A DNA stretch of 60,030 bases from Escherichia coli. GTDB taxonomy: Bacteria; Pseudomonadota; Gammaproteobacteria; Enterobacterales; Enterobacteriaceae. Shown in pieces: positions 4,750 to 30,642 of the stretch (positions are counted from its first letter, which is position 1; every line of letters starts with the position of its first letter). Under the pieces are notes generated by a model. The model had not been told where the DNA came from, made no database searches, and worked only from the letters and a program-made list of their open reading frames with translations. The position numbers were made by a program, and so were the translations under genes. Location: the NCBI RefSeq assembly GCF_003334785.1, contig NZ_QOWV01000021.1, one strand, 5' to 3'.

Positions 4750-6126
4750 TTATTTCCGACGCAGCGTTTTAAATGCCATAAACAGGAATACAATCCACAC
4801 CGGCAGCAGGATCGCTGACAAGCGCATATCATCCATCGTGCACATCAGCAGCAAAATCATGCCGAGGAAGGCAATGCAGAGATAGTTGCCGAACGGATAG
4901 AGCAGCGCCTTAAACTGTGTTTCACGCCCCTGACGTCGCATCGCTGCACGAAAACGCAGATGCGCCAGACAGATCATAATCCAGTTCAACAGCAGCGTTG
5001 CTACCACCAGCGCCATCAGCAGACCAAACGCTTTTTGCGGCAGCAGATAGTTGATTAACACCACCAGCGAAGTGATCGCTCCGGAAAGCATCAGCGAGTT
5101 AATCGGCACACCGCGACGGCTGACGCGAGTCAAAAACTTCGGCGCATTACCCTGCACAGAAAGGCCAAACAGCATGCGGCTGTTAGAGTAAACCCCGCTG
5201 TTATACACTGACAGCGATGCTACCAGAATGACGAAGTTCAGCGCAGAAGCTACCACGTTGCTGTCGAGATTATGGAAAATCATCACAAACGGGCTACTGT
5301 TGGATTTCACTTCCACCCACGGATAGAGCGCCAGTAAAACCACCAGTGAACCGATGTAAAACAGCAGGATGCGATACACCACCTGATTTACCGCTTTTGG
5401 AATGCTTTTTTCCGGATCGCGCGCTTCAGCGGCAGTAATCCCAATCAGCTCCAGACCGCCGAAGGAGAACATAATTACCGCCAGCGACAAAATCAGCCCA
5501 TTCCAGCCGGTGGCGAAGAAACCACCGTAGCGCCAGAGGTTGTCGATACTGGCTTTCTCGCCGCCGTGACCAGAAAACAGCAGCCACAGGCCAAAGCCGA
5601 TCATACCGATGATTGCCAGCACTTTAATCAACGCAAACCAGAACTCGGTTTCGCCATATAAGCGCACGTTCACCAGGTTAACGGCGTTGATGATAATAAA
5701 GAAGGCGGCAGCCCAAATCCACGTTGGAACATCCGGGAACCAGTACTGCATATAGATGCCCGCAGCGGTCAGCTCTGCCATTCCCACCAGCACGAACATT
5801 ACCCAGTAGTTCCAGCCAGAGAGGAAGCCCGCAAACGGTCCCCAGTATTTATAGGCAAAGTGGGCAAATGAACCGGATACCGGCTCTTCGACCACCATCT
5901 CGCCAAGCTGGCGCATAATCAGGAAAGCGATGATCCCGGCGACGCCGTAGCCCAGCAATACAGCCGGACCCGCCATCTGAATCGCCGGACCAATGCCAAG
6001 AAACAGACCAGTACCAATTGCGCCACCCAGCGCAATCAGTTGAATATGACGGTTATGTAATCCGCGATGAAGCGTCGGCTCTTGATTCGACGCAGTATCT
6101 TCCGATACGGTTGACGCGTTTTTCAC
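4750..6126 (-). CDS. pheP: phenylalanine-specific APC-family permease
   Basis: 12 TM amino-acid permease; track ORF (470 aa) trimmed to GTG at 6126 giving MKNASTVSEDTASNQEPTLHRGLHNRHIQLIALGG... (458 aa). Confidence 0.88.
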   Translation of the reverse strand: MKNASTVSEDTASNQEPTLHRGLHNRHIQLIALGGAIGTGLFLGIGPAIQMAGPAVLLGYGVAGIIAFLIMRQLGEMVVEEPVSGSFAHFAYKYWGPFAGFLSGWNYWVMFVLVGMAELTAAGIYMQYWFPDVPTWIWAAAFFIIINAVNLVNVRLYGETEFWFALIKVLAIIGMIGFGLWLLFSGHGGEKASIDNLWRYGGFFATGWNGLILSLAVIMFSFGGLELIGITAAEARDPEKSIPKAVNQVVYRILLFYIGSLVVLLALYPWVEVKSNSSPFVMIFHNLDSNVVASALNFVILVASLSVYNSGVYSNSRMLFGLSVQGNAPKFLTRVSRRGVPINSLMLSGAITSLVVLINYLLPQKAFGLLMALVVATLLLNWIMICLAHLRFRAAMRRQGRETQFKALLYPFGNYLCIAFLGMILLLMCTMDDMRLSAILLPVWIVFLFMAFKTLRRK

Positions 6127-21051: not shown

Positions 21052-21813
21052 ATGCAATTGAGCAGCAGTGAACCTTGCGTGGTGATCCTGACCGAAAAAG
21101 AGGTAGAGGTAAGCGTCAATAACCATGCTACGTTTACCCTTCCGAAAAACTACCTGGCCGCCTTCGCGTGCAACAATAACGTCATTGAACTCTCAACGTT
21201 AAATCACGTATTAATCACCCACATCAACCGTAACATCATCAACGATTATCTGTTGTTTTTAAATAAGAACTTAACCTGTGTAAAGCCCTGGTCGCGGCTG
21301 GCAACCCCGGTTATCGCTTGTCATAGCCGTACACCGGAAGTGTTCCGGCTAGCCGCCAACCACAGCAAGCAGCAACCCAGCAGACCCTGCGAAGCGGAGT
21401 TGACGCGCGCATTGCTTTTTACCGTATTGTCTAACTTTCTTGAGCAATCGCGGTTTATTGCCCTACTGATGTATATCTTACGCAGCAGCGTCCGCGACAG
21501 CGTCTGCCGCATTATTCAAAGCGATATTCAGCATTACTGGAATCTGCGAATTGTCGCCAGTTCGCTATGTTTAAGCCCCAGCCTGCTCAAAAAGAAATTA
21601 AAAAACGAAAATACCAGCTATAGCCAGATTGTCACAGAGTGTCGTATGCGTTACGCCGTACAGATGTTATTGATGGATAACAAAAATATCACTCAGGTGG
21701 CGCAATTATGTGGCTATAGCAGCACGTCGTACTTTATCTCTGTTTTTAAGGCGTTTTACGGCCTGACACCGTTGAATTATCTCGCCAAACAGCGACAAAA
21801 AGTGATGTGGTGA
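21052..21813 (+). CDS. envY: AraC-family transcriptional regulator
   Basis: 253 aa, C-terminal AraC HTH (YSSTSYFISVFKAFYGLTPLNY); visibly AT-rich gene. Confidence 0.85.
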   Translation: MQLSSSEPCVVILTEKEVEVSVNNHATFTLPKNYLAAFACNNNVIELSTLNHVLITHINRNIINDYLLFLNKNLTCVKPWSRLATPVIACHSRTPEVFRLAANHSKQQPSRPCEAELTRALLFTVLSNFLEQSRFIALLMYILRSSVRDSVCRIIQSDIQHYWNLRIVASSLCLSPSLLKKKLKNENTSYSQIVTECRMRYAVQMLLMDNKNITQVAQLCGYSSTSYFISVFKAFYGLTPLNYLAKQRQKVMW

Positions 21814-21858
21814 AGGGCAAAGCGGAAACGGATAAGACGGGCATAAATGAGGAAGAAA

Positions 21859-21935
21859 TGGCGCGCCCTGCAGGATTCGAACCTGCGGCCCACGACTTAG
21901 AAGGTCGTTGCTCTATCCAACTGAGCTAAGGGCGC
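21859..21935 (-). tRNA. argU: tRNA-Arg (anticodon UCU, reads AGA)
   Basis: Reverse complement gives GCGCCCTTAGCTCAGTTGGATAGAGCAACGACCTTCTAAGTCGTGGGCCGCAGGTTCGAATCCTGCAGGGCGCGCCA: cloverleaf-compatible, anticodon loop CTTCTAA, T-arm GGTTCGAATCC, encoded CCA. Confidence 0.95.
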
Positions 21936-22177
21936 GTTGATACCGCAATGCGGTGTAATCGCGTGAATTATACGGTCAACCCTTGCTGAGTCAATGGCTT
22001 TTGATCTGGTTGCTGAACAAGTGAACGACCGCGTCTGATTTTCTGATTTATTTCGCTATAGCGGCAAACAAACGCACACCGCTGCGCGTCTGAATCAAGA
22101 AAACCCGTATTTTCATGTATCAAAGTACAATTTCCCGACCTAACGGAAAATTGTCCGCTCCTATGAGACTGGTAACT

Positions 22178-22810
22178 ATGAAACCAACGTCGGTGATCAT
22201 TATGGATACTCATCCTATCATCAGAATGTCTATTGAAGTTCTGTTGCAAAAAAACAGTGAATTGCAGATTGTCCTGAAAACGGATGATTATCGCATAACC
22301 ATCGATTATCTCCGAACCCGTCCTGTTGATTTAATCATTATGGATATAGACTTGCCCGGAACAGACGGTTTTACCTTCCTGAAAAGGATCAAACAAATCC
22401 AGAGCACAGTGAAAGTGTTATTTTTATCATCGAAATCAGAATGCTTTTATGCTGGCAGAGCGATACAAGCTGGTGCTAACGGTTTTGTCAGTAAATGCAA
22501 TGATCAGAATGATATTTTTCATGCCGTTCAGATGATCCTCTCCGGATACACGTTTTTTCCCAGCGAAACGCTTAACTATATAAAAAGCAATAAATGTAGT
22601 ACGAATAGTTCAACGGTCACTGTGCTATCTAATCGTGAAGTGACCATATTACGTTATCTGGTTAGCGGATTATCTAATAAAGAAATTGCCGATAAGTTAT
22701 TACTTAGCAATAAAACAGTTAGTGCGCATAAATCTAATATTTATGGCAAGCTAGGTTTGCATTCAATTGTAGAGCTTATCGACTACGCCAAATTATACGA
22801 ATTAATATAA
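22178..22810 (+). CDS. fimZ: LuxR/FixJ-family response regulator of fimbrial expression
   Basis: Track ORF 22115..22810 trimmed to ATG 22178 (MKPTSVIIMDTHPIIRMSIEVLLQ..., 210 aa); receiver domain plus C-terminal LuxR HTH; contains AGA/AGG/ATA rare codons. Confidence 0.88.
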   Translation: MKPTSVIIMDTHPIIRMSIEVLLQKNSELQIVLKTDDYRITIDYLRTRPVDLIIMDIDLPGTDGFTFLKRIKQIQSTVKVLFLSSKSECFYAGRAIQAGANGFVSKCNDQNDIFHAVQMILSGYTFFPSETLNYIKSNKCSTNSSTVTVLSNREVTILRYLVSGLSNKEIADKLLLSNKTVSAHKSNIYGKLGLHSIVELIDYAKLYELI

Positions 22811-22812
22811 TA

Positions 22813-23328
22813 TTAATTATAATTGATCATAAATATCGCATCCGCTTTCGCCACACCTGGCCGAACACCGCTGGCTAACGCTCGATAATTGGCAAAAAAG
22901 TTTAGTGTGACATTGCCATTTGCATCTACTTCCTCAGTCGGGCTCGCCTCCCCCAGTGCGAGCCGGGAGCGATCGCTATTACGTAATTCGATGGCGACGG
23001 TTTGTGCCATTGCGGGATCATCCAGAGCCAGCAGGTTGGTATCGGATGCCGGCGTTCCCGTAAATAAAATCGCAACTGAACCCGGAGGACATCCCTCCAG
23101 CCGCAGGCTAAAAGGGACGAGTGCCGTGGTATCGCCAGCGTTCAGTAGTTGTGTCGTAGGCCATCTGCCTAAATCTACCGTCTTATCAATATCCGCTGTG
23201 TTTACGGTACAGGAGAAATCAACAACGTTACCGTGCAAATTGATATTAATCGTTCCTAAAGGGTCAACTGCCCATCCACTGGAACTCCACAGTAGCCCGC
23301 AGAAACAGCTAAAGAGTACTCTTCTCAT
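22813..23328 (-). CDS. sfmF: minor fimbrial subunit (FimF-like)
   Basis: Track ORF 22813..23523 overlaps sfmH; trimmed to ATG 23328 (MRRVLFSCFCGLLWSSSGWA signal peptide, 171 aa); pilin-type C-terminus. Confidence 0.85.
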   Translation of the reverse strand: MRRVLFSCFCGLLWSSSGWAVDPLGTININLHGNVVDFSCTVNTADIDKTVDLGRWPTTQLLNAGDTTALVPFSLRLEGCPPGSVAILFTGTPASDTNLLALDDPAMAQTVAIELRNSDRSRLALGEASPTEEVDANGNVTLNFFANYRALASGVRPGVAKADAIFMINYN

Positions 23329-23338
23329 TCTCCGTACC

Positions 23339-24346
23339 TCATTGATAATCGACGCGTAAATACCCCAGCGCGCTAAACGGCCCTTCGGTCGGTTTTTGAC
23401 CGGTAATACTGATAGGCCAGGCGCGAAGTGTGACATTGGCTGCCGCAGCTGCATCCAGACGGAAAGGAATAACGCTATTGAGATCGTTAGGCGTGATCGG
23501 CGTATCGTTCTGATCGGCGACAATAAAACCTAAATCCTGATTGTCCGACACCATCGCCTGACCAGAAACGGCACTGGCTTCCAGACGCATTGTTAAATAA
23601 GCCTGCGCAGCAACATTCGTACATTTGACCGCAATGCTCTTGGTTTGCGGCATGACACCAGCAGGTCGATTACCCGGCCCTGCCGCACTAAATAACGATG
23701 CGCCGATATCACCAAAATCAAATTCAACAATCTGCCCGGCATTTAATTCGCAGTTTTGCGGTACTTCAACCCGGCCACCAAAACTAATGGTATAAACAGG
23801 TGTAACCAACGGATCGTAAGGCGTTGATGTCACATACACGGTAAACATCACCTGTCTGGGGATCTCCACCATGTTAATAAAGGGACGAATAACCTTTAAA
23901 CGAAATATTAAACGAGAATCCATCACCCCGAATGGAAGGTTTTGCGAAACGTTAGGATCTGTTCCCATCCGAATATAATTTTGCGGGGGGAACTGAATAT
24001 CCATAACACTATCAACCAGACTCATCGCACCTAATAGATAATCATTTAATTGCATATATTTATAATTATCGATAGTTTCCTGAACAATAAAGTTGGTGAC
24101 ATAACTACGGTATGTATAATTCACCAGCGTGCCGGGTGGACAAATTGCTGAGACACCTACCCAGCCGGATTTTTCCGGTAAAACAACAATCTGCCCTGGC
24201 TGGTTATTGGTGCTATTAAAGATATTTGAGAGATCATAGTGTTCATCTTCTGCTACGCCAGTACTATTTGCACAAACAGTAGCCCAGGATATGTTTGCCA
24301 GACACAAACATGCCATCGCCAATAATAATCTGCAGATTATCTTCAT
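23339..24346 (-). CDS. sfmH: fimbrial adhesin-like subunit (FimH-like)
   Basis: 335 aa with signal peptide and C-terminal pilin domain; position after usher; exact start uncertain. Confidence 0.82.
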   Translation of the reverse strand: MKIICRLLLAMACLCLANISWATVCANSTGVAEDEHYDLSNIFNSTNNQPGQIVVLPEKSGWVGVSAICPPGTLVNYTYRSYVTNFIVQETIDNYKYMQLNDYLLGAMSLVDSVMDIQFPPQNYIRMGTDPNVSQNLPFGVMDSRLIFRLKVIRPFINMVEIPRQVMFTVYVTSTPYDPLVTPVYTISFGGRVEVPQNCELNAGQIVEFDFGDIGASLFSAAGPGNRPAGVMPQTKSIAVKCTNVAAQAYLTMRLEASAVSGQAMVSDNQDLGFIVADQNDTPITPNDLNSVIPFRLDAAAAANVTLRAWPISITGQKPTEGPFSALGYLRVDYQ

Positions 24347-24358
24347 TGATAATTTCCT

Positions 24359-26968
24359 TTATGAGCCAGGATGTGTGCAAACTGCCGAAATAACAGTGAC
24401 GGCTTGCTGTAAGCTTTGCTTCGGCAATACATAGTGCGCAATGCAGCGTGAGTTCGCGCCGTCTCCCCACTGAACCAGTAATTCACCAGACAATGGCGCA
24501 CCACTTAAATAAACTTGCCCGTCATCACCCACCATACTGGTTATTCCGGTACTGTTTTCCCGTACCAGTGATCCAAACGGCACCGGTTTTCCGCCCTGGG
24601 TAACGGTAATGAGCGCCCGCACGCCTATGCGGGTATCAAAATTGGCACGAACCAACGCGCCTTGCGTCGGCACAACGCTGCTAATATTTTTTTCAACATC
24701 GATGGAATTCCCCATCGTATTGGTATCAAGCGCGATACGGTTATACCGATAAACCGTGGCATACGGCATCACCGCATAGCCGCGCCAGTCGGTTAAAATG
24801 CCAGTTTGATTTTCAATGCGTACACCGCCTGCGCCAGGCGCTTTAATCAAAACATTGGTATCCCCTAAAGGCTGGCTCAGCGTTATGCCATTTTCATGCC
24901 CGACCACACCGCCAGACAGCTGCCAGTTAACGTCATGTTGATCGCGGTCGTAGTTATACCCGACCCCCAGCGTACCGTAAGCGGCCTGCCAGTTTGCCGT
25001 GGCGCTGCCCGTATACCCATTATTCGAGGTATCACCCTGGCTTACGTGATAACTCAGGTTGTGGCCTTCCAGTAAGGTCCCACCTACACCTGCCAGCCAG
25101 CTATTTTGCCCGTTGCTGTTACGGTTGGCGTTAAAGGAGGCATAAGCGCGGTCGAGCGCATTTTCCCGGGTGTAGCGACGTTTGGTCAGAACATTGAAAG
25201 GCACTGAAACATTAAGTCCGACAATACATTCGTTATCGGGGATCCCTACAGATTCATTCCACGAAAATGAGAGCGAATAACTGATGCCAACCCAGCTGCT
25301 GGTATACCCCACCTGATACCACGTATCTGAATCCGATGTATTCCAGTATTTTTGATGGGTACCAGAGATATAAAGCGAGCCAAAGTCATTAAGTGATTGT
25401 GAAATATTTAACTGCAAACGGTCTTTACGGCTAAAGCGTAAATTGTGGTAATTCACGATTATCGGTTCATCGCGATGCTCACCGTCGTAATCGTAATCAT
25501 ATTCGTACCCCTCCATTCGACGATACGCAACATCATCAAGGGTATAAAAACCTTGTGTCGAATAGCGGTAACCCATTAACTGAAAATTGGTGCCGAAGGT
25601 GTTCATCGATTTCGCATAGAGGAAGCGAATAGAATCCCCCTCATGACGACTATCGTCGGCTAACTGACTGCGCGCATGGGTCACATCCAGCGACACTGCG
25701 CCCCAGTTCCCGAGGTTGCGCCCCAGCCCTAATAAAAAGGCGGTGTAATTGGCAGATAATTGCGTCCCGCCGTAGGCAGTAAATTCCTGTGGTAAACCGC
25801 CGAGTACCGTGCCCTGAAAAAAGAAAGGCGATGATTGCTGACTATTACCGCTACGAAAATCGCCCCCCGTCAGGTCAAATTTGAAACGCCCTTCGCGTTG
25901 TAAAATTGGCACTGTTGAATACGGAATAGTGTAATTCTGCTGATTGCCATCGCGCTCGTCGATGGTGACGTCCAGATCGCCATTTGAAGATGTCGGGTGC
26001 AAATCTGTAATTTCAAAAGCGCCGGGGGAAACATAGCTTTGATAGATAATAAAACCATTTTGCCGAATCGTTAGCTGGGCCGCCGTACGGGCAATCCCAC
26101 GTACTGTTGGGGCAAACCCTTGCTGGCTATCAGGATACATATTATCGGAAGAGTAAAGCCGTACACCACGAAATCCAACACCATCGAAAATATCACTTCC
26201 TGTATTGCCGTCTCCCATTACCAGTTCACTTTTCAGCGGAATAATGGCGCGCTGTACCCAGGTGCCAATATTATTCCACTGTTCTGAATGATACCCATTT
26301 CCGCGAAAATAGTTCCAGGAACCATTGTTGCGTAAACGCCACGGGCCAATATTAATCCCGCTGAGCTCACTAAAAAAATAGCTATCGTTACCATTACCTC
26401 TGTTACCAGTGAAATTATAATTCAGGAGTAAAGCAGGAATACCTTCATCCCACTCTTCAGGCGGAATGTAACCGTGAGCGCTACTCAACAACGCTATCTG
26501 AGGAATAGTGATGTTCAGGCGCATCGCTGCAAAATCAAAGTTAATTGTGGCATCAGGTACAGCTTTCAGTAAATTGATGCATTTATTATTTTGCTGCTGG
26601 GCTAACTCGGGAAATGCACTGCTATTAAGGCCAATTCGTTCAAGGAGTACCTGGTTAAAACAGGGCATTAACCCACCTGATTTATCACCTGTATTTTCTG
26701 TTGTCGATTCAAATACGATATCCTGTGAACCAATGAACTCATCATTACGCCAGAGATCCACCCGATACACGCCCGCAGGTTGATGATTACCTCTCTCAAA
26801 GCGCGATAAATCAGCAACGGATGTGCCATTCTCTAATAAAAATGCCGGGTTGAAATAACTTTCCGCATAGCTTAAAAAGGAGGGTAAAATGGCAAGAGAT
26901 GAATAACAAATTCCGGCCAGACACCAGGTATACCTCTGCGGAATATCCGTAGTAGTGGGTATTTTCAT
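24359..26968 (-). CDS. sfmD: fimbrial outer-membrane usher
   Basis: 869 aa usher-family protein; exact start codon uncertain within a few codons. Confidence 0.9.
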
Positions 26969-26998
26969 AATTAGCTCTGATATTGTCAGATGATTCGG

Positions 26999-27691
26999 TT
27001 AGTTTAAGTTCACTTCTCTGACCGGGGTTACTGAACCATAATCATTAACGGTCTGAAATTTCAGCTTTCCCTGCACTCCTGAGGGTAAGGGAATTTGTGA
27101 ATTAACTCTGGGTGCAGCCATAGCATTCCCCAACTTTTGGCTGCCCACTTGTAAGTTAACCAGGGTGACATAAAAAGGTGATGGATTATGAACATTGATA
27201 TAGTTACCGGATCGCGAAAACTTGAGTGTGTCCGGCGCTTCTGCGGGTAATTCTTGTAATTGAATTGGACGGAGAAATAACTTCATGCGCGATAAAATCG
27301 CCAGTTGCAAAACATTCCTGCCGTTCAATGCATTTTTATCTACCGAAGGGATCGTCTTAACATTCATCCAGAACAGAGACTCACGATCTGCCGCCAGCGG
27401 TGGACCGGTGTAAATAATACGCAAAGTATTTTCGCTTTTGGGTTCACTAACAAATAGTGGCGGTGTAATGATGAATGACTTTTCTTTTACACCGCTGCTG
27501 TTTTCAATCCACGAATTGACCAGAAAACGCTCATTGGTATGGCTATTTCTAATCCATACCGCAGTCTGTTTAGCATCAGCGGGATAAATAATACGCGTGG
27601 CACCTAATGCGATCCCTCCGGCAGCATGGGCGCTGGCCGAAATGATTAAATAAAATATAATGAGCATCAATAACTTTATTTTAGTCATCAT
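26999..27691 (-). CDS. sfmC: periplasmic fimbrial chaperone (PapD-like)
   Basis: 230 aa, signal peptide, chaperone fold motifs. Confidence 0.9.
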
Positions 27692-27910
27692 AGTTAATAC
27701 GCCTTGTGTATTCCTGACGGCAAAAATAAGAAATATAAAGAAATGATTGCTTTGGTTTCTTACAACACATCATTCCCTTTTCATTTAATAAAGCGGCATG
27801 ATACAAAGTGAACATGATTTCGATTTACATTGCCACCATACCGCTTCAGACAACCGGTACATTACTTTGTTATAAGACGTGATATATAATTCAAAACAAC
27901 GTGGTTTTGA

Positions 27911-28453
27911 TTATTCGTATCTCATAATAAAAGTCGCGTCAGCATTTGCTTGCCCTGCTGATGCACTTGTACCGGTGCCTTTATAACGTGCAGAAAAATG
28001 AAGAACGTTGGTCCCGGGGATCAAGTTCTGGTTGGTTGAGAAGCTATTCCCATCAGGTTTGAGAATTGCGGATGTATTATCAAGTATTTCAATACCGACA
28101 CCCGTTGCTGTTGTTGTATTGGTACTGGATGCAATGGCCAATAAATTATCATTGATTGCATCAGCCTGACCAGAAAATGCAACGGCAGCATTAGCGGCAA
28201 CAACAGGATCGCAGTCGTTCAACTGAATGGTGAATGGAATTAATGCAGAGGTATTACCAACAGCATTGAAAATATCGGTACGATATTGACCGAGTGTGAC
28301 AACTTGGTCTGCCGAGTCAGTATTCACTGAACAGGCAGCATTCACCAGTTCGCCTTCAAAGTGAATTGTACCGCCATCTACAACGGCAGCATAACTACCC
28401 GTAGCGGCGAATAGTGCGGCAGCCAGCGCAGACGAAATAAATCTTAATTTCAT
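27911..28453 (-). CDS. sfmA: major type-1-like fimbrial subunit
   Basis: Track ORF trimmed to ATG 28453 ([22 protein letters not shown] signal peptide; 180 aa); AAGGA Shine-Dalgarno upstream. Confidence 0.88.
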
Positions 28454-28932
28454 ATATATTCCTTCAATCTCATTTATCGACTCCACATCCGTATATAACC
28501 GATTACTTTATTTAAGACACTGATAGTAGTAAATTCCTTTTTATCCTCTAAGAATGTCTTAATTGAAAATATGCACTCTATTCTAAAAAATAGAGAGCCC
28601 CGTTAGATGAATACTTCCGCGCAAAATATATTCAACACAAATATAGACCTGAAGCGGTAAATTACCAGGCTGAAAATTCTTTTTATATTGTCAGGTATTT
28701 CTTAAATTATCTTAATCCTTAGACAAGGAAATAAGTCAGTTCCAGATTTACAACGCCATCATGGACGAAAAATGAAGCTTTCAATCTCAGCGACCTCAGC
28801 GACGGTGCGCCTAACCTTCGCAAGAGGTCGCTTCACGTGATAAATCTGAAACGAAACCTGACAGCGCGCCCCGCTTCTGACAAAATAGGCGCATCCCCTT
28901 CGACCTACGTAACAGATGGAATCCTCTCTCTG

Positions 28933-29799
28933 ATGGCAGCAAAGATTATTGACGGTAAAACGATTGCGCAGCAGGTGCGCTCTGAAGTTGCTCAAAAAGT
29001 TCAGGCGCGTATTGCAGCCGGACTGCGGGCACCAGGACTGGCCGTTGTGCTGGTGGGTAGTAACCCTGCATCGCAAATTTATGTCGCAAGCAAACGCAAG
29101 GCTTGTGAAGAAGTCGGGTTCGTCTCCCGCTCTTATGACCTCCCGGAAACCACCAGCGAAGCGGAGCTGCTGGAGCTTATCGATGCGCTGAATGCCGACA
29201 ACACCATTGATGGCATTCTGGTTCAACTGCCGTTACCGGCGGGTATTGATAACGTCAAAGTACTGGAACGTATTCACCCGGACAAAGACGTAGACGGTTT
29301 CCATCCTTATAACGTCGGTCGCCTGTGCCAGCGCGCGCCGCGTCTGCGTCCCTGCACCCCGCGCGGCATCGTCACGCTGCTTGAGCGTTACAACATTGAT
29401 ACCTTCGGCCTCAACGCCGTGGTGATTGGCGCATCGAATATCGTTGGCCGCCCGATGAGCATGGAACTGCTGCTAGCAGGTTGCACCACTACCGTGACTC
29501 ACCGCTTCACTAAAAATCTGCGTCATCACGTAGAAAATGCCGATCTGTTGATCGTTGCCGTCGGCAAGCCGGGCTTTATTCCTGGTGACTGGATCAAAGA
29601 AGGCGCAATTGTGATTGATGTCGGCATCAACCGTCTGGAAAATGGCAAAGTTGTGGGCGACGTGGTGTTTGAAGACGCGGCTAAACGCGCCTCATACATT
29701 ACGCCTGTTCCCGGCGGCGTTGGCCCGATGACGGTTGCCACGCTGATTGAAAACACGCTACAGGCGTGCGTTGAATATCATGATCCACAGGGTGAGTAA
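28933..29799 (+). CDS. folD: bifunctional 5,10-methylene-tetrahydrofolate dehydrogenase / cyclohydrolase
   Basis: Track ORF trimmed to ATG 28933 ([19 protein letters not shown]..., 288 aa). Confidence 0.93.
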
Positions 29800-29800
29800 C

Positions 29801-30013
29801 ATGGCGACATTTTCTTTAGGTAAACATCCGCACGTTGAGCTGTGCGACTTGCTGAAACTGGAAGGCTGGAGCGAAAGCGGCGCGCAGGCGAAAATCGCGA
29901 TTGCCGAAGGCCAGGTGAAAGTCGATGGCGCGGTTGAAACGCGCAAACGCTGCAAAATCGTCGCCGGTCAGACAGTGAGTTTTGCAGGTCACAGCGTACA
30001 GGTTGTTGCCTGA
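29801..30013 (+). CDS. ybcJ: S4-domain RNA-binding protein
   Basis: ATG at 29801, 2 nt after folD stop; MATFSLGKHPHVELCDLLKLEGW... (70 aa). Confidence 0.85.
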   Translation: MATFSLGKHPHVELCDLLKLEGWSESGAQAKIAIAEGQVKVDGAVETRKRCKIVAGQTVSFAGHSVQVVA

Positions 30014-30120
30014 TCCCTTTCCCGGCCTGTATCAACAGGCCGGTTCTCTTTTCAGACTTTTGCCCTCTACGCCCCGTTCATCCATGCTGATAGCATCGAC
30101 ATTTTGCCGAAGCGACCATC

Positions 30121-30642
30121 ATGCCAACCGTTATTACGCACGCCGCCGTTCCCCTATGCATTGGTTTAGGGTTGGGTTCGAAAGTCATCCCTCCGCGTCT
30201 GTTATTTGCCGGAATCATCCTGGCGATGCTGCCCGACGCCGACGTATTGTCGTTTAAATTTGGCATTGCTTACGGCAATGTTTTTGGTCATCGCGGGTTT
30301 ACCCATTCGCTGGTGTTTGCGTTTGTTGTCCCGCTGTTATGTGTGCTGATTGGACGCCGATGGTTCAGGGCTGGGCTGATTCGCTGCTGGCTGTTTTTAA
30401 CCGTCTCGTTGCTATCGCACAGCTTGCTGGATTCGGTAACCACTGGCGGTAAAGGGGTTGGCTGGCTGTGGCCGTGGTCAGATGAACGCTTTTTCGCTCC
30501 CTGGCAGGTGATTAAAGTCGCGCCGTTTGCATTGTCTCGTTACACCACGCCGTACGGGCATCAGGTGATTATTTCTGAATTGATGTGGGTGTGGTTGCCG
30601 GGGATTCTACTGATGGGAATGTTGTGGTGGCACAGACGATAA
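30121..30642 (+). CDS. ybcI: inner-membrane metal-dependent hydrolase-like protein (DUF457)
   Basis: 173 aa hydrophobic protein with conserved His residues. Confidence 0.8.
   Translation: MPTVITHAAVPLCIGLGLGSKVIPPRLLFAGIILAMLPDADVLSFKFGIAYGNVFGHRGFTHSLVFAFVVPLLCVLIGRRWFRAGLIRCWLFLTVSLLSHSLLDSVTTGGKGVGWLWPWSDERFFAPWQVIKVAPFALSRYTTPYGHQVIISELMWVWLPGILLMGMLWWHRR

Follow-up and report, generated by a model that had tools for sequence, protein, structure and literature searches.

A probable composite control region between the divergent genes folD and sfmA of Escherichia coli

The Salmonella fimA promoter (PfimA) is activated by FimZ and FimY, modulated by Lrp and followed by a leader that titrates CsrA, and it lies divergent from folD, as sfmA does in E. 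coli. Sequestration of CsrA by the fim 5´ leader is credited to Sterzenbach 2013 in a paper citing that work (PMC6844306). The E. coli sfm genes have been described as the positional ortholog of Salmonella fim and as absent from phylogroup B2 (PMC3604780). In K-12, the spacer between folD (minus strand) and sfmA (plus strand) is listed as promoter island 557105_351, spanning -330 to +20 of the sfmA ATG and bound by H-NS in the ChIP-chip data of Kahramanoglou and of Oshima (PMC3661553). The same study associates this island with horizontally acquired genes, reports only short abortive RNAs from the folD/sfmA island and explicitly sets this island against the Salmonella folD-fimA spacer. The operon is silent in laboratory conditions, and over-production of SlyA raises expression of sfmHF (PMC5797941); that paper also attributes to Korea 2010 the observation that H-NS represses sfm, which is one of several cryptic chaperone-usher operons. 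According to papers citing Ogawa 2022, among them RegulonDB v12 (PMC10767902; also PMC12471899 and PMC12711010), E. coli FimZ is an orphan response regulator; in K-12 it up-regulates both the sfm operon and Sfm pili, an effect that depends on phosphorylation.

The window analysed here is a stretch of 60,030 nucleotides of E. coli DNA (contig NZ_QOWV01000021.1, assembly GCF_003334785.1). According to its open reading frames and annotation, 479 bp of non-coding DNA separate the divergent starts of sfmA and folD, in line with the ~480 bp given in an earlier note on this DNA. Among the 20 intergenic gaps of the 18.5-kb neighbourhood that is annotated, no other is as long, the second longest having 242 bp, and none of the 15 listed E. 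coli records has an annotated feature inside this gap. The genes and the gap are located as follows.

27911-28453, minus strand: sfmA, Salmonella-type FimA major fimbrial subunit (open reading frame and family match)
28454-28932, no strand assigned: whole sfmA-folD divergent intergenic region (gene coordinates)
28933-29799, plus strand: folD (ATG at 28933, 542 bits)
22178-22810, plus strand: fimZ, orphan response regulator, intact, 210 aa (NF007403)

The sfmA start codon is an ATG at 28453 on the minus strand, and the 180-aa product scores 317 bits on NCBIfam NF011741 (Salmonella-type FimA); in strain 300709, whose spacer is 100% identical, the same open reading frame is annotated as fimA/sfmA. 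FimZ reaches 447 bits on NF007403 (cut-off 271) and is the presumed activator acting on the sfmA control region; the sfm genes and fimZ are all intact in the window. In this strain envY adjoins argU, the gene for tRNA-Arg (UCU), directly at 21052-21935, and there is no DLP12 prophage. In K-12, intD/DLP12 is inserted at argU.

The spacer is an ordinary E. coli control region serving both folD and sfmA, at a locus that is already published and not new. With a probability that we put at roughly 85%, it is a composite of three parts, namely a folD promoter part, a GC-rich variable spacer and an sfmA block that is silenced by H-NS and activated by FimZ. The length of the gap would then be explained by ~150 bp of upstream regulatory DNA together with a leader of ~180 nt and the folD promoter.

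The base composition divides the gap in two. As a whole it has 38.8% GC (4.5th percentile of 479-bp windows), compared with 50.6% in the window. The part from 28454 to 28780 has 31.8% GC (0.9th percentile of the 327-bp windows of the 60 kb), and the stretch 28435-28734 ranks second-lowest in GC among the 300-bp stretches of the 60 kb. Such an AT content, far above the window average (31.8% vs 50.6% GC), is what an H-NS-silenced xenogeneic promoter has. The part from 28781 to 28932, in contrast, has 53.9% GC, the same as the folD and housekeeping flank. The description of the region as strongly AT-rich and unlike its housekeeping flanks therefore applies to two thirds of it and not to 28781-28932, and the A/T tracts that had been mentioned are only weakly present, as four homopolymer runs of 5-6 (T5, A6, T5, A5).

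Low GC content is also found elsewhere in the window. The 219-bp spacer between sfmA and sfmC (27692-27910) is likewise very AT-rich, with 30.7% GC in 27640-27939, and sits where Salmonella and Citrobacter have fimI; in K-12, genomic SELEX has placed a peak of RpoH holoenzyme between sfmA and sfmC (PMC5493296). The lowest-GC segments of the window lie within 57780-59541 (57780-58079, 27.7%; 58898-59197, 29.7%; 59242-59541, 33.3%) and surround two minus-strand open reading frames, 58015-58725 and 59133-60005.

The AT-rich block corresponds to the published K-12 island, since the span reported for the island matches the low-GC part of the gap. Two features are assigned to it here.

28454-28780, minus strand: AT-rich sfm-specific block, 31.8% GC, equal to K-12 promoter island 557105_351
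28471-28480, minus strand: TCGATAAATG, agreeing at 9 of 10 positions with the high-affinity consensus of H-NS, TCGATAAATT (motif scan)

Compared with K-12 MG1655, the spacer differs by 5 SNPs and a 9-bp indel overall; only one of these SNPs falls into the AT-rich 327 bp, whereas the adjoining 152 bp carry four SNPs and the indel. Because the AT-rich block differs by this one SNP only, the published K-12 data can be transferred directly. The earlier note had proposed that nucleoid proteins silence and a FimZ-type regulator activates the operon from this region. Both ideas are supported in outline and have already been published for K-12: the first by the K-12 ChIP data and the cited repression by H-NS, with a block one SNP away from K-12, and the second by the cited up-regulation of K-12 sfm by FimZ, with fimZ intact here. 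The H-NS consensus quoted in PMC3661553 has five matches in the window against 5.4 expected, which is no enrichment over chance. A crude scan of the gap with the sigma-70 consensus returned three promoter-like sites, compared with 1.5 +/- 1.3 in shuffled sequences, and did not by itself reproduce the character of a promoter island; the promoter density claimed for the islands rests on another predictor, PlatProm (PMC3661553).

Which part of the gap belongs to folD became clear from the genomes that have lost sfm. When 5426 complete E. coli genomes were searched by megablast with the 479-bp sequence, 5425 of them gave a match, and only 4175 reached a coverage of at least 80%. Genomes without the full region share only the 84 bp adjoining folD (28849-28932), which are also conserved in Salmonella, Citrobacter and E. 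albertii. Two features describe this side of the gap.

28849-28932, plus strand: folD core promoter and leader, 53.6% GC, shared with sfm-less E. coli
28858-28886, plus strand: folD promoter-like site, CTGACA and CAAAAT separated by a 17-nt spacer, with a TG preceding the second hexamer (extended -10; consensus scan)

Since sfm-less E. coli retain just these 84 bp, they are folD backbone: this is folD's own promoter with a short leader, and it is ancient DNA. The two hexamers are invariant in a nine-sequence alignment (described below), in which the folD core (28944-28846) forms a conserved block, and the promoter-like site implies a folD transcription start near 28893. The proposal that the whole interval holds silencing and activation sites for sfm therefore does not extend to these 84 bp.

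About 1250 of the 5426 complete E. coli genomes (~23%) are without the whole fimZ-sfmFHDCA cluster. In the sfm-less strain d1-7, the missing DNA corresponds to window positions ~22075-28848, that is fimZ, sfmFHDCA and 395 bp of the spacer, a block of ~6.8 kb whose right-hand junction lies at 28848/28849. In the sfm-less genomes the distance between argU and folD is ~270 bp and includes ~55 bp of unrelated filler. Salmonella, Citrobacter and E. albertii all carry the cluster at the same position, and thus the sfm-less E. coli are, as judged from this distribution, deletion derivatives, and the folD-sfmA arrangement is ancestral rather than an insertion site. E. coli JX21CE35 (5248-6000 of its contig) has taken an independent route to sfm inactivation: IS1A stands in place of sfmA, sfmC and the 5´ part of sfmD, with a junction at about window position 28742, and the folD side is intact from there on.

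Between the folD part and the AT-rich block lies a short segment that varies between strains.

About 28781-28848: GC-rich variable spacer separating the two control regions (composition and lineage comparison)
28786-28803, no strand assigned: 9-bp tandem duplication, two copies of CTCAGCGAC (repeat search, family D10)

This strain has two copies of CTCAGCGAC and a spacer of 479 bp; K-12 MG1655 has a single copy, and for this reason its spacer has 470 bp. The indel is polymorphic in the species, two copies being present in at least 1706 genomes and one copy in at least 906. The GC-rich segment also contains a perfect 9-nt inverted repeat (28789-28797 / 28824-28832), which is limited to the mainstream E. 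coli sfm lineage.

The sfmA side was compared across genera. In all contigs traced for relatives of SfmA, folD is divergent from sfmA or fimA, and the spacers measure 423-575 bp. These contigs come from Salmonella enterica subsp. I and a subsp. arizonae record (Salmonella contigs L004 and L011), E. albertii (L005, L006), three Citrobacter lineages (L007, L008, L012), a relative known from a metagenome (L013) and an E. coli with a divergent sfmA allele (L009). Nine folD-sfmA/fimA spacers were aligned with MAFFT L-INS-i. The Salmonella fimA start was located with the four published coordinates of Lrp motifs (PMC3203922); position 2307 of L004 is the only spacer position that satisfies all four, and the fimA leader is then 194 nt long. 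The Salmonella segment bound by FimZ (-98 to -47) reads AATAAGATTAGACC...AATAAGAATTAGC, in full AATAAGATTAGACCTTTCTTATATCCCAATAAGAATTAGCTTAGGTCATTAA. The central ~100 bp of the spacer cannot be aligned across genera. The following elements are assigned on the sfmA side.

28696-28724, minus strand: candidate FimZ site GTCTAAGGATTAAGATAATTTAAGAAATA (alignment to the Salmonella FimZ-bound segment, -98 to -47)
28667-28683, minus strand: conserved block AAAAGAATTTTCAGCCT, ~-50 to -34 (alignment)
28633-28645, minus strand: predicted sfmA core promoter, -10 TATATT at 28645-28640, start at 28633 +/- 3 (homology to the Salmonella fimA start)
28454-28632, minus strand: predicted sfmA 5´ leader, ~180 nt (homology to Salmonella, 194 nt)
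28547-28563, minus strand: second copy of a 17-nt repeat, ATTAAGACATTCTTAGA, ~+71 to +87, inside the leader (repeat search)

The candidate FimZ site lies at ~-91 to -63 from the predicted sfmA start and contains three direct TAAG(G/A) elements, which begin at 28722, 28714 and 28704 and are thus spaced by 8 and 10 bp. The element TAAGAAWTA (28704-28696, minus strand) is conserved in nine of the nine aligned sequences. Within 28454-28780, TAAGA occurs five times against 1.8 expected (P = 0.02) and TTAAGA four times against 0.65 expected (P = 0.0065) in dinucleotide shuffles, an enrichment that is modest and partly post hoc. FimZ may bind at 28696-28724. The 17-nt repeat copy at 28547-28563 has 76% identity to 28700-28716 (family D1; inverted repeat I1) and is not conserved outside E. 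coli in the nine-sequence alignment, Salmonella included; it may be a downstream site for H-NS or FimZ, or a chance similarity.

Closer to the predicted start, AAAAGnATTTnCnG (28683-28669, minus strand) is nearly invariant in the alignment. The AAAAGAATTTTCAGCCT block to which it belongs overlaps the weak -35 and the promoter-proximal end of the Salmonella FimZ/Lrp region. A search of the gap for the Lrp motifs of Salmonella PfimA gave one match to GNNTTTT, at 28679, and none to the type III motif. A -10-like TAwwTT (TATATT in E. coli) is conserved across the alignment, as is a GTGA just past the predicted start (28635-28632). The -35 is poor (CTGGTA, 28668-28663), and no minus-strand sigma-70 site in the gap reaches the threshold of 9 out of 12 consensus positions, which fits an activator-dependent promoter. 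The -10, the start site and the length of the leader are predictions from homology.

Taken together, these elements suggest how the sfmA promoter could work. H-NS, together with Hha/StpA, would coat the AT-rich 327 bp and hold the weak sfmA promoter silent. Phosphorylated FimZ, whose gene lies at a distance of 5.6 kb at the opposite end of the operon, would bind the TAAGA-type repeats, and from a position centred ~65-90 bp upstream of the start it would activate transcription. The sfmA transcript would start near 28633 and carry the leader of ~180 nt.

It might also be that a cryptic island is decaying here and has left the AT-rich block merely as a trace in base composition, with a non-specific coat of H-NS and no functional specific activator sites, the shared words reflecting ancestry and not constraint. 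The laboratory silence of sfm (PMC5797941) would agree with this, as would the loss of the cluster from ~23% of complete E. coli genomes and the IS1 deletions in others, the absence of FimY and FimW, the restriction of the promoter island to short abortive RNAs (PMC3661553) and a repeat spacing unlike that of the Salmonella FimZ site. However, papers citing Ogawa 2022 report that both sfm expression and Sfm pili increase in K-12 when FimZ is over-expressed. Moreover, the AT-rich 327 bp differ from K-12 by a single SNP, compared with four SNPs and an indel in the adjoining 152 bp, four genera share conserved blocks at the positions expected for the promoter, and fimZ and all sfm genes are intact. 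We therefore consider mere decay unlikely and prefer the reading of a silenced sfmA promoter that can be activated by FimZ.

Fimbrial operons are often phase variable, and in type 1 fimbriae the inverted repeats of the switch fimS lie ~300 bp apart. In a pap-type switch, Lrp sites upstream of the fimbrial promoter contain two GATC sites. The gap contains a 10-nt inverted repeat pair with 90% identity (28470-28479 / 28766-28775, pair I6) and 286 nt between its arms, and these fimS-like dimensions could suggest an invertible element. The pair belongs to 16 weak inverted repeats, a number expected by chance in AT-rich DNA, and the locus has no recombinase gene. Inversion itself was searched for with a chimeric query: not one of the 4262 genomes carrying the region had the inversion junction (at least 80% coverage), and the full-length matches were collinear in 4175 of 4175 cases; a fimS-type inversion is therefore rejected. 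The Salmonella fim operon is likewise reported to be without an invertible element (PMC3203922). A methylation switch of the pap type (Dam/Lrp) is rejected as well, since the 479 bp contain no GATC (1.6 expected). Phase variation of either kind is thus so improbable for this spacer that a composite control region with fixed orientation is clearly preferred.

The leader deserves separate attention. The ~180 bp adjoining sfmA are most likely transcribed leader rather than upstream promoter DNA, and in this respect the earlier note, for which the region probably holds the silencing and activation sites, has to be revised. Several GGA motifs in the leader are conserved: AGGAU at 28547-28543, ACGGAUGU near 28491-28484 and the ribosome-binding AAGGA at 28465-28461; the second corresponds to an A(C/A)GGAT block (~28491-28485) that is conserved in the nine-sequence alignment. 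In the alignment, two GGAU motifs fall on the RUACARGGAUGU-like sites found in the fim leader of Salmonella. The enrichment of GGA in the leader is not significant in shuffles (P = 0.14; A(N)GGA, P = 0.05). The leader folds no better than is usual (z = -1.45), and the consensus structure derived for it is weak (13 pairs, -3.3 kcal/mol); one weak consensus hairpin would put the distal GGAU into its loop. At the end of the leader there is a very short upstream open reading frame.

28450-28473, minus strand: mini-uORF ATG AGA TTG AAG GAA TAT ATA TGA, encoding MRLKEYI* (sequence reading)

Its stop codon overlaps the sfmA ATG (ATGA), and a GGAG is located 7 nt upstream of its start. Divergent Escherichia alleles have a uORF in the same frame (MKEFL* and MKVYL*), and none is found at the sfmA/fimA start of Salmonella and Citrobacter in the alignment. 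The second codon of the mini-uORF is the rare AGA, which is decoded by the tRNA of the neighbouring argU gene; a function of the mini-uORF is speculative. Possibly, the sfmA leader adds a post-transcriptional layer of control, through GGAU and CsrA, through the supply of tRNA-Arg (UCU) to the uORF or through both, an idea we regard as improbable at present. If it were true, this would be a layer of control undescribed in E. coli, replacing the FimY/fimU link of Salmonella, which was lost in E. coli. The divergent E. coli allele, with 74% identity in sfmA, has a leader with a CAGCTA hexamer repeated three times in tandem (L009, ~2440-2460), a repeat that none of the other sequences contains; in place of the GC-rich hairpin segment of the window, the upstream spacer of this allele has AT-rich DNA.

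The length of the gap might also be due to an unannotated gene for a small RNA or a small protein. Short RNAs have been reported from the K-12 island (PMC3661553), the seven-codon uORF, preceded by a GGAG of its own, runs into the sfmA start, and two plus-strand promoter-like sites (28563-28591 and 28662-28689) run antisense to the leader. However, Rfam 15 has no match at E <= 1 across 27500-30200, the fold and the consensus structure of the leader are as unremarkable as described above, and the gap holds no terminator-like site, the sole one found lying within folD (28966-28980). The open reading frames wholly inside the gap have TTG or GTG as start codon, reach 43 aa at most and show no conservation. 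As the upstream region, the leader and the folD promoter already account for the length of the gap, a hidden gene is very unlikely, and the composite control region remains the preferred explanation.

For the near-identical K-12 sequence, the literature already covers the locus, its silencing by H-NS, its status as a listed promoter island and its activation by FimZ. What the present analysis adds is a base-level map that sets the 84-bp promoter and leader of folD apart from sfm-specific DNA, the FimZ site, -10, start and leader of sfmA as predicted by homology, and the boundary of the 6.8-kb sfm loss found in about a quarter of E. coli genomes. Such a map is useful for the design of reporter fusions and for studying the cryptic state of the Sfm fimbriae.

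Among the known systems, PfimA resembles the sfmA control region in many respects. The sfmA region occupies the orthologous position, divergent from folD and upstream of a Salmonella-type fimA; the major subunits are orthologous with 64% identity, and the cognate fimZ is present and intact in the cluster. TAAGA-type repeats are found at the aligned position of the Salmonella FimZ-bound segment, and the -10 region, the GTGA, two GGAU motifs and a long leader (predicted at ~180 nt here, 194 nt in Salmonella) are shared. There are also differences. The E. coli spacer is 67 bp shorter than that of Salmonella (479 vs 546 bp) and more AT-rich, the TAAG(G/A) elements are spaced by 8-10 bp compared with ~26 bp for AATAAGA in Salmonella, with a 12-bp deletion between the repeats, and the four Lrp motifs of Salmonella are mostly unmatched. 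Salmonella fimY, fimW and fimI are absent from the E. coli locus; only 242 bp, without an annotated gene, lie between fimZ and the tRNA-Arg gene, so that neither FimY nor FimW is encoded beside fimZ. The sfmA control region thus seems to work like PfimA, with a membership that is incomplete because the co-regulators FimY and FimW, which the Salmonella circuit requires, are missing, and the FimZ-type circuit of the earlier note needs to be corrected in this point.

K-12 promoter island 557105_351 is the same locus; the strain studied here differs in having two copies of CTCAGCGAC and no DLP12 beyond argU. The fimS element of type 1 fimbriae is likewise an AT-rich control region of ~300 bp that precedes a fimA-like gene and binds H-NS and Lrp; the sfmA region, unlike fimS, showed no inversion in 4262 genomes and has neither flanking recombinases nor true terminal inverted repeats. 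The yad, elf/ycb and yeh promoters are likewise AT-rich promoter islands with H-NS occupancy that are silent in laboratory culture and are derepressed in hns mutants or by over-production of SlyA. Unlike these operons, sfm has a dedicated response-regulator activator encoded in cis, FimZ, as well as an ortholog in another genus whose promoter has been mapped.
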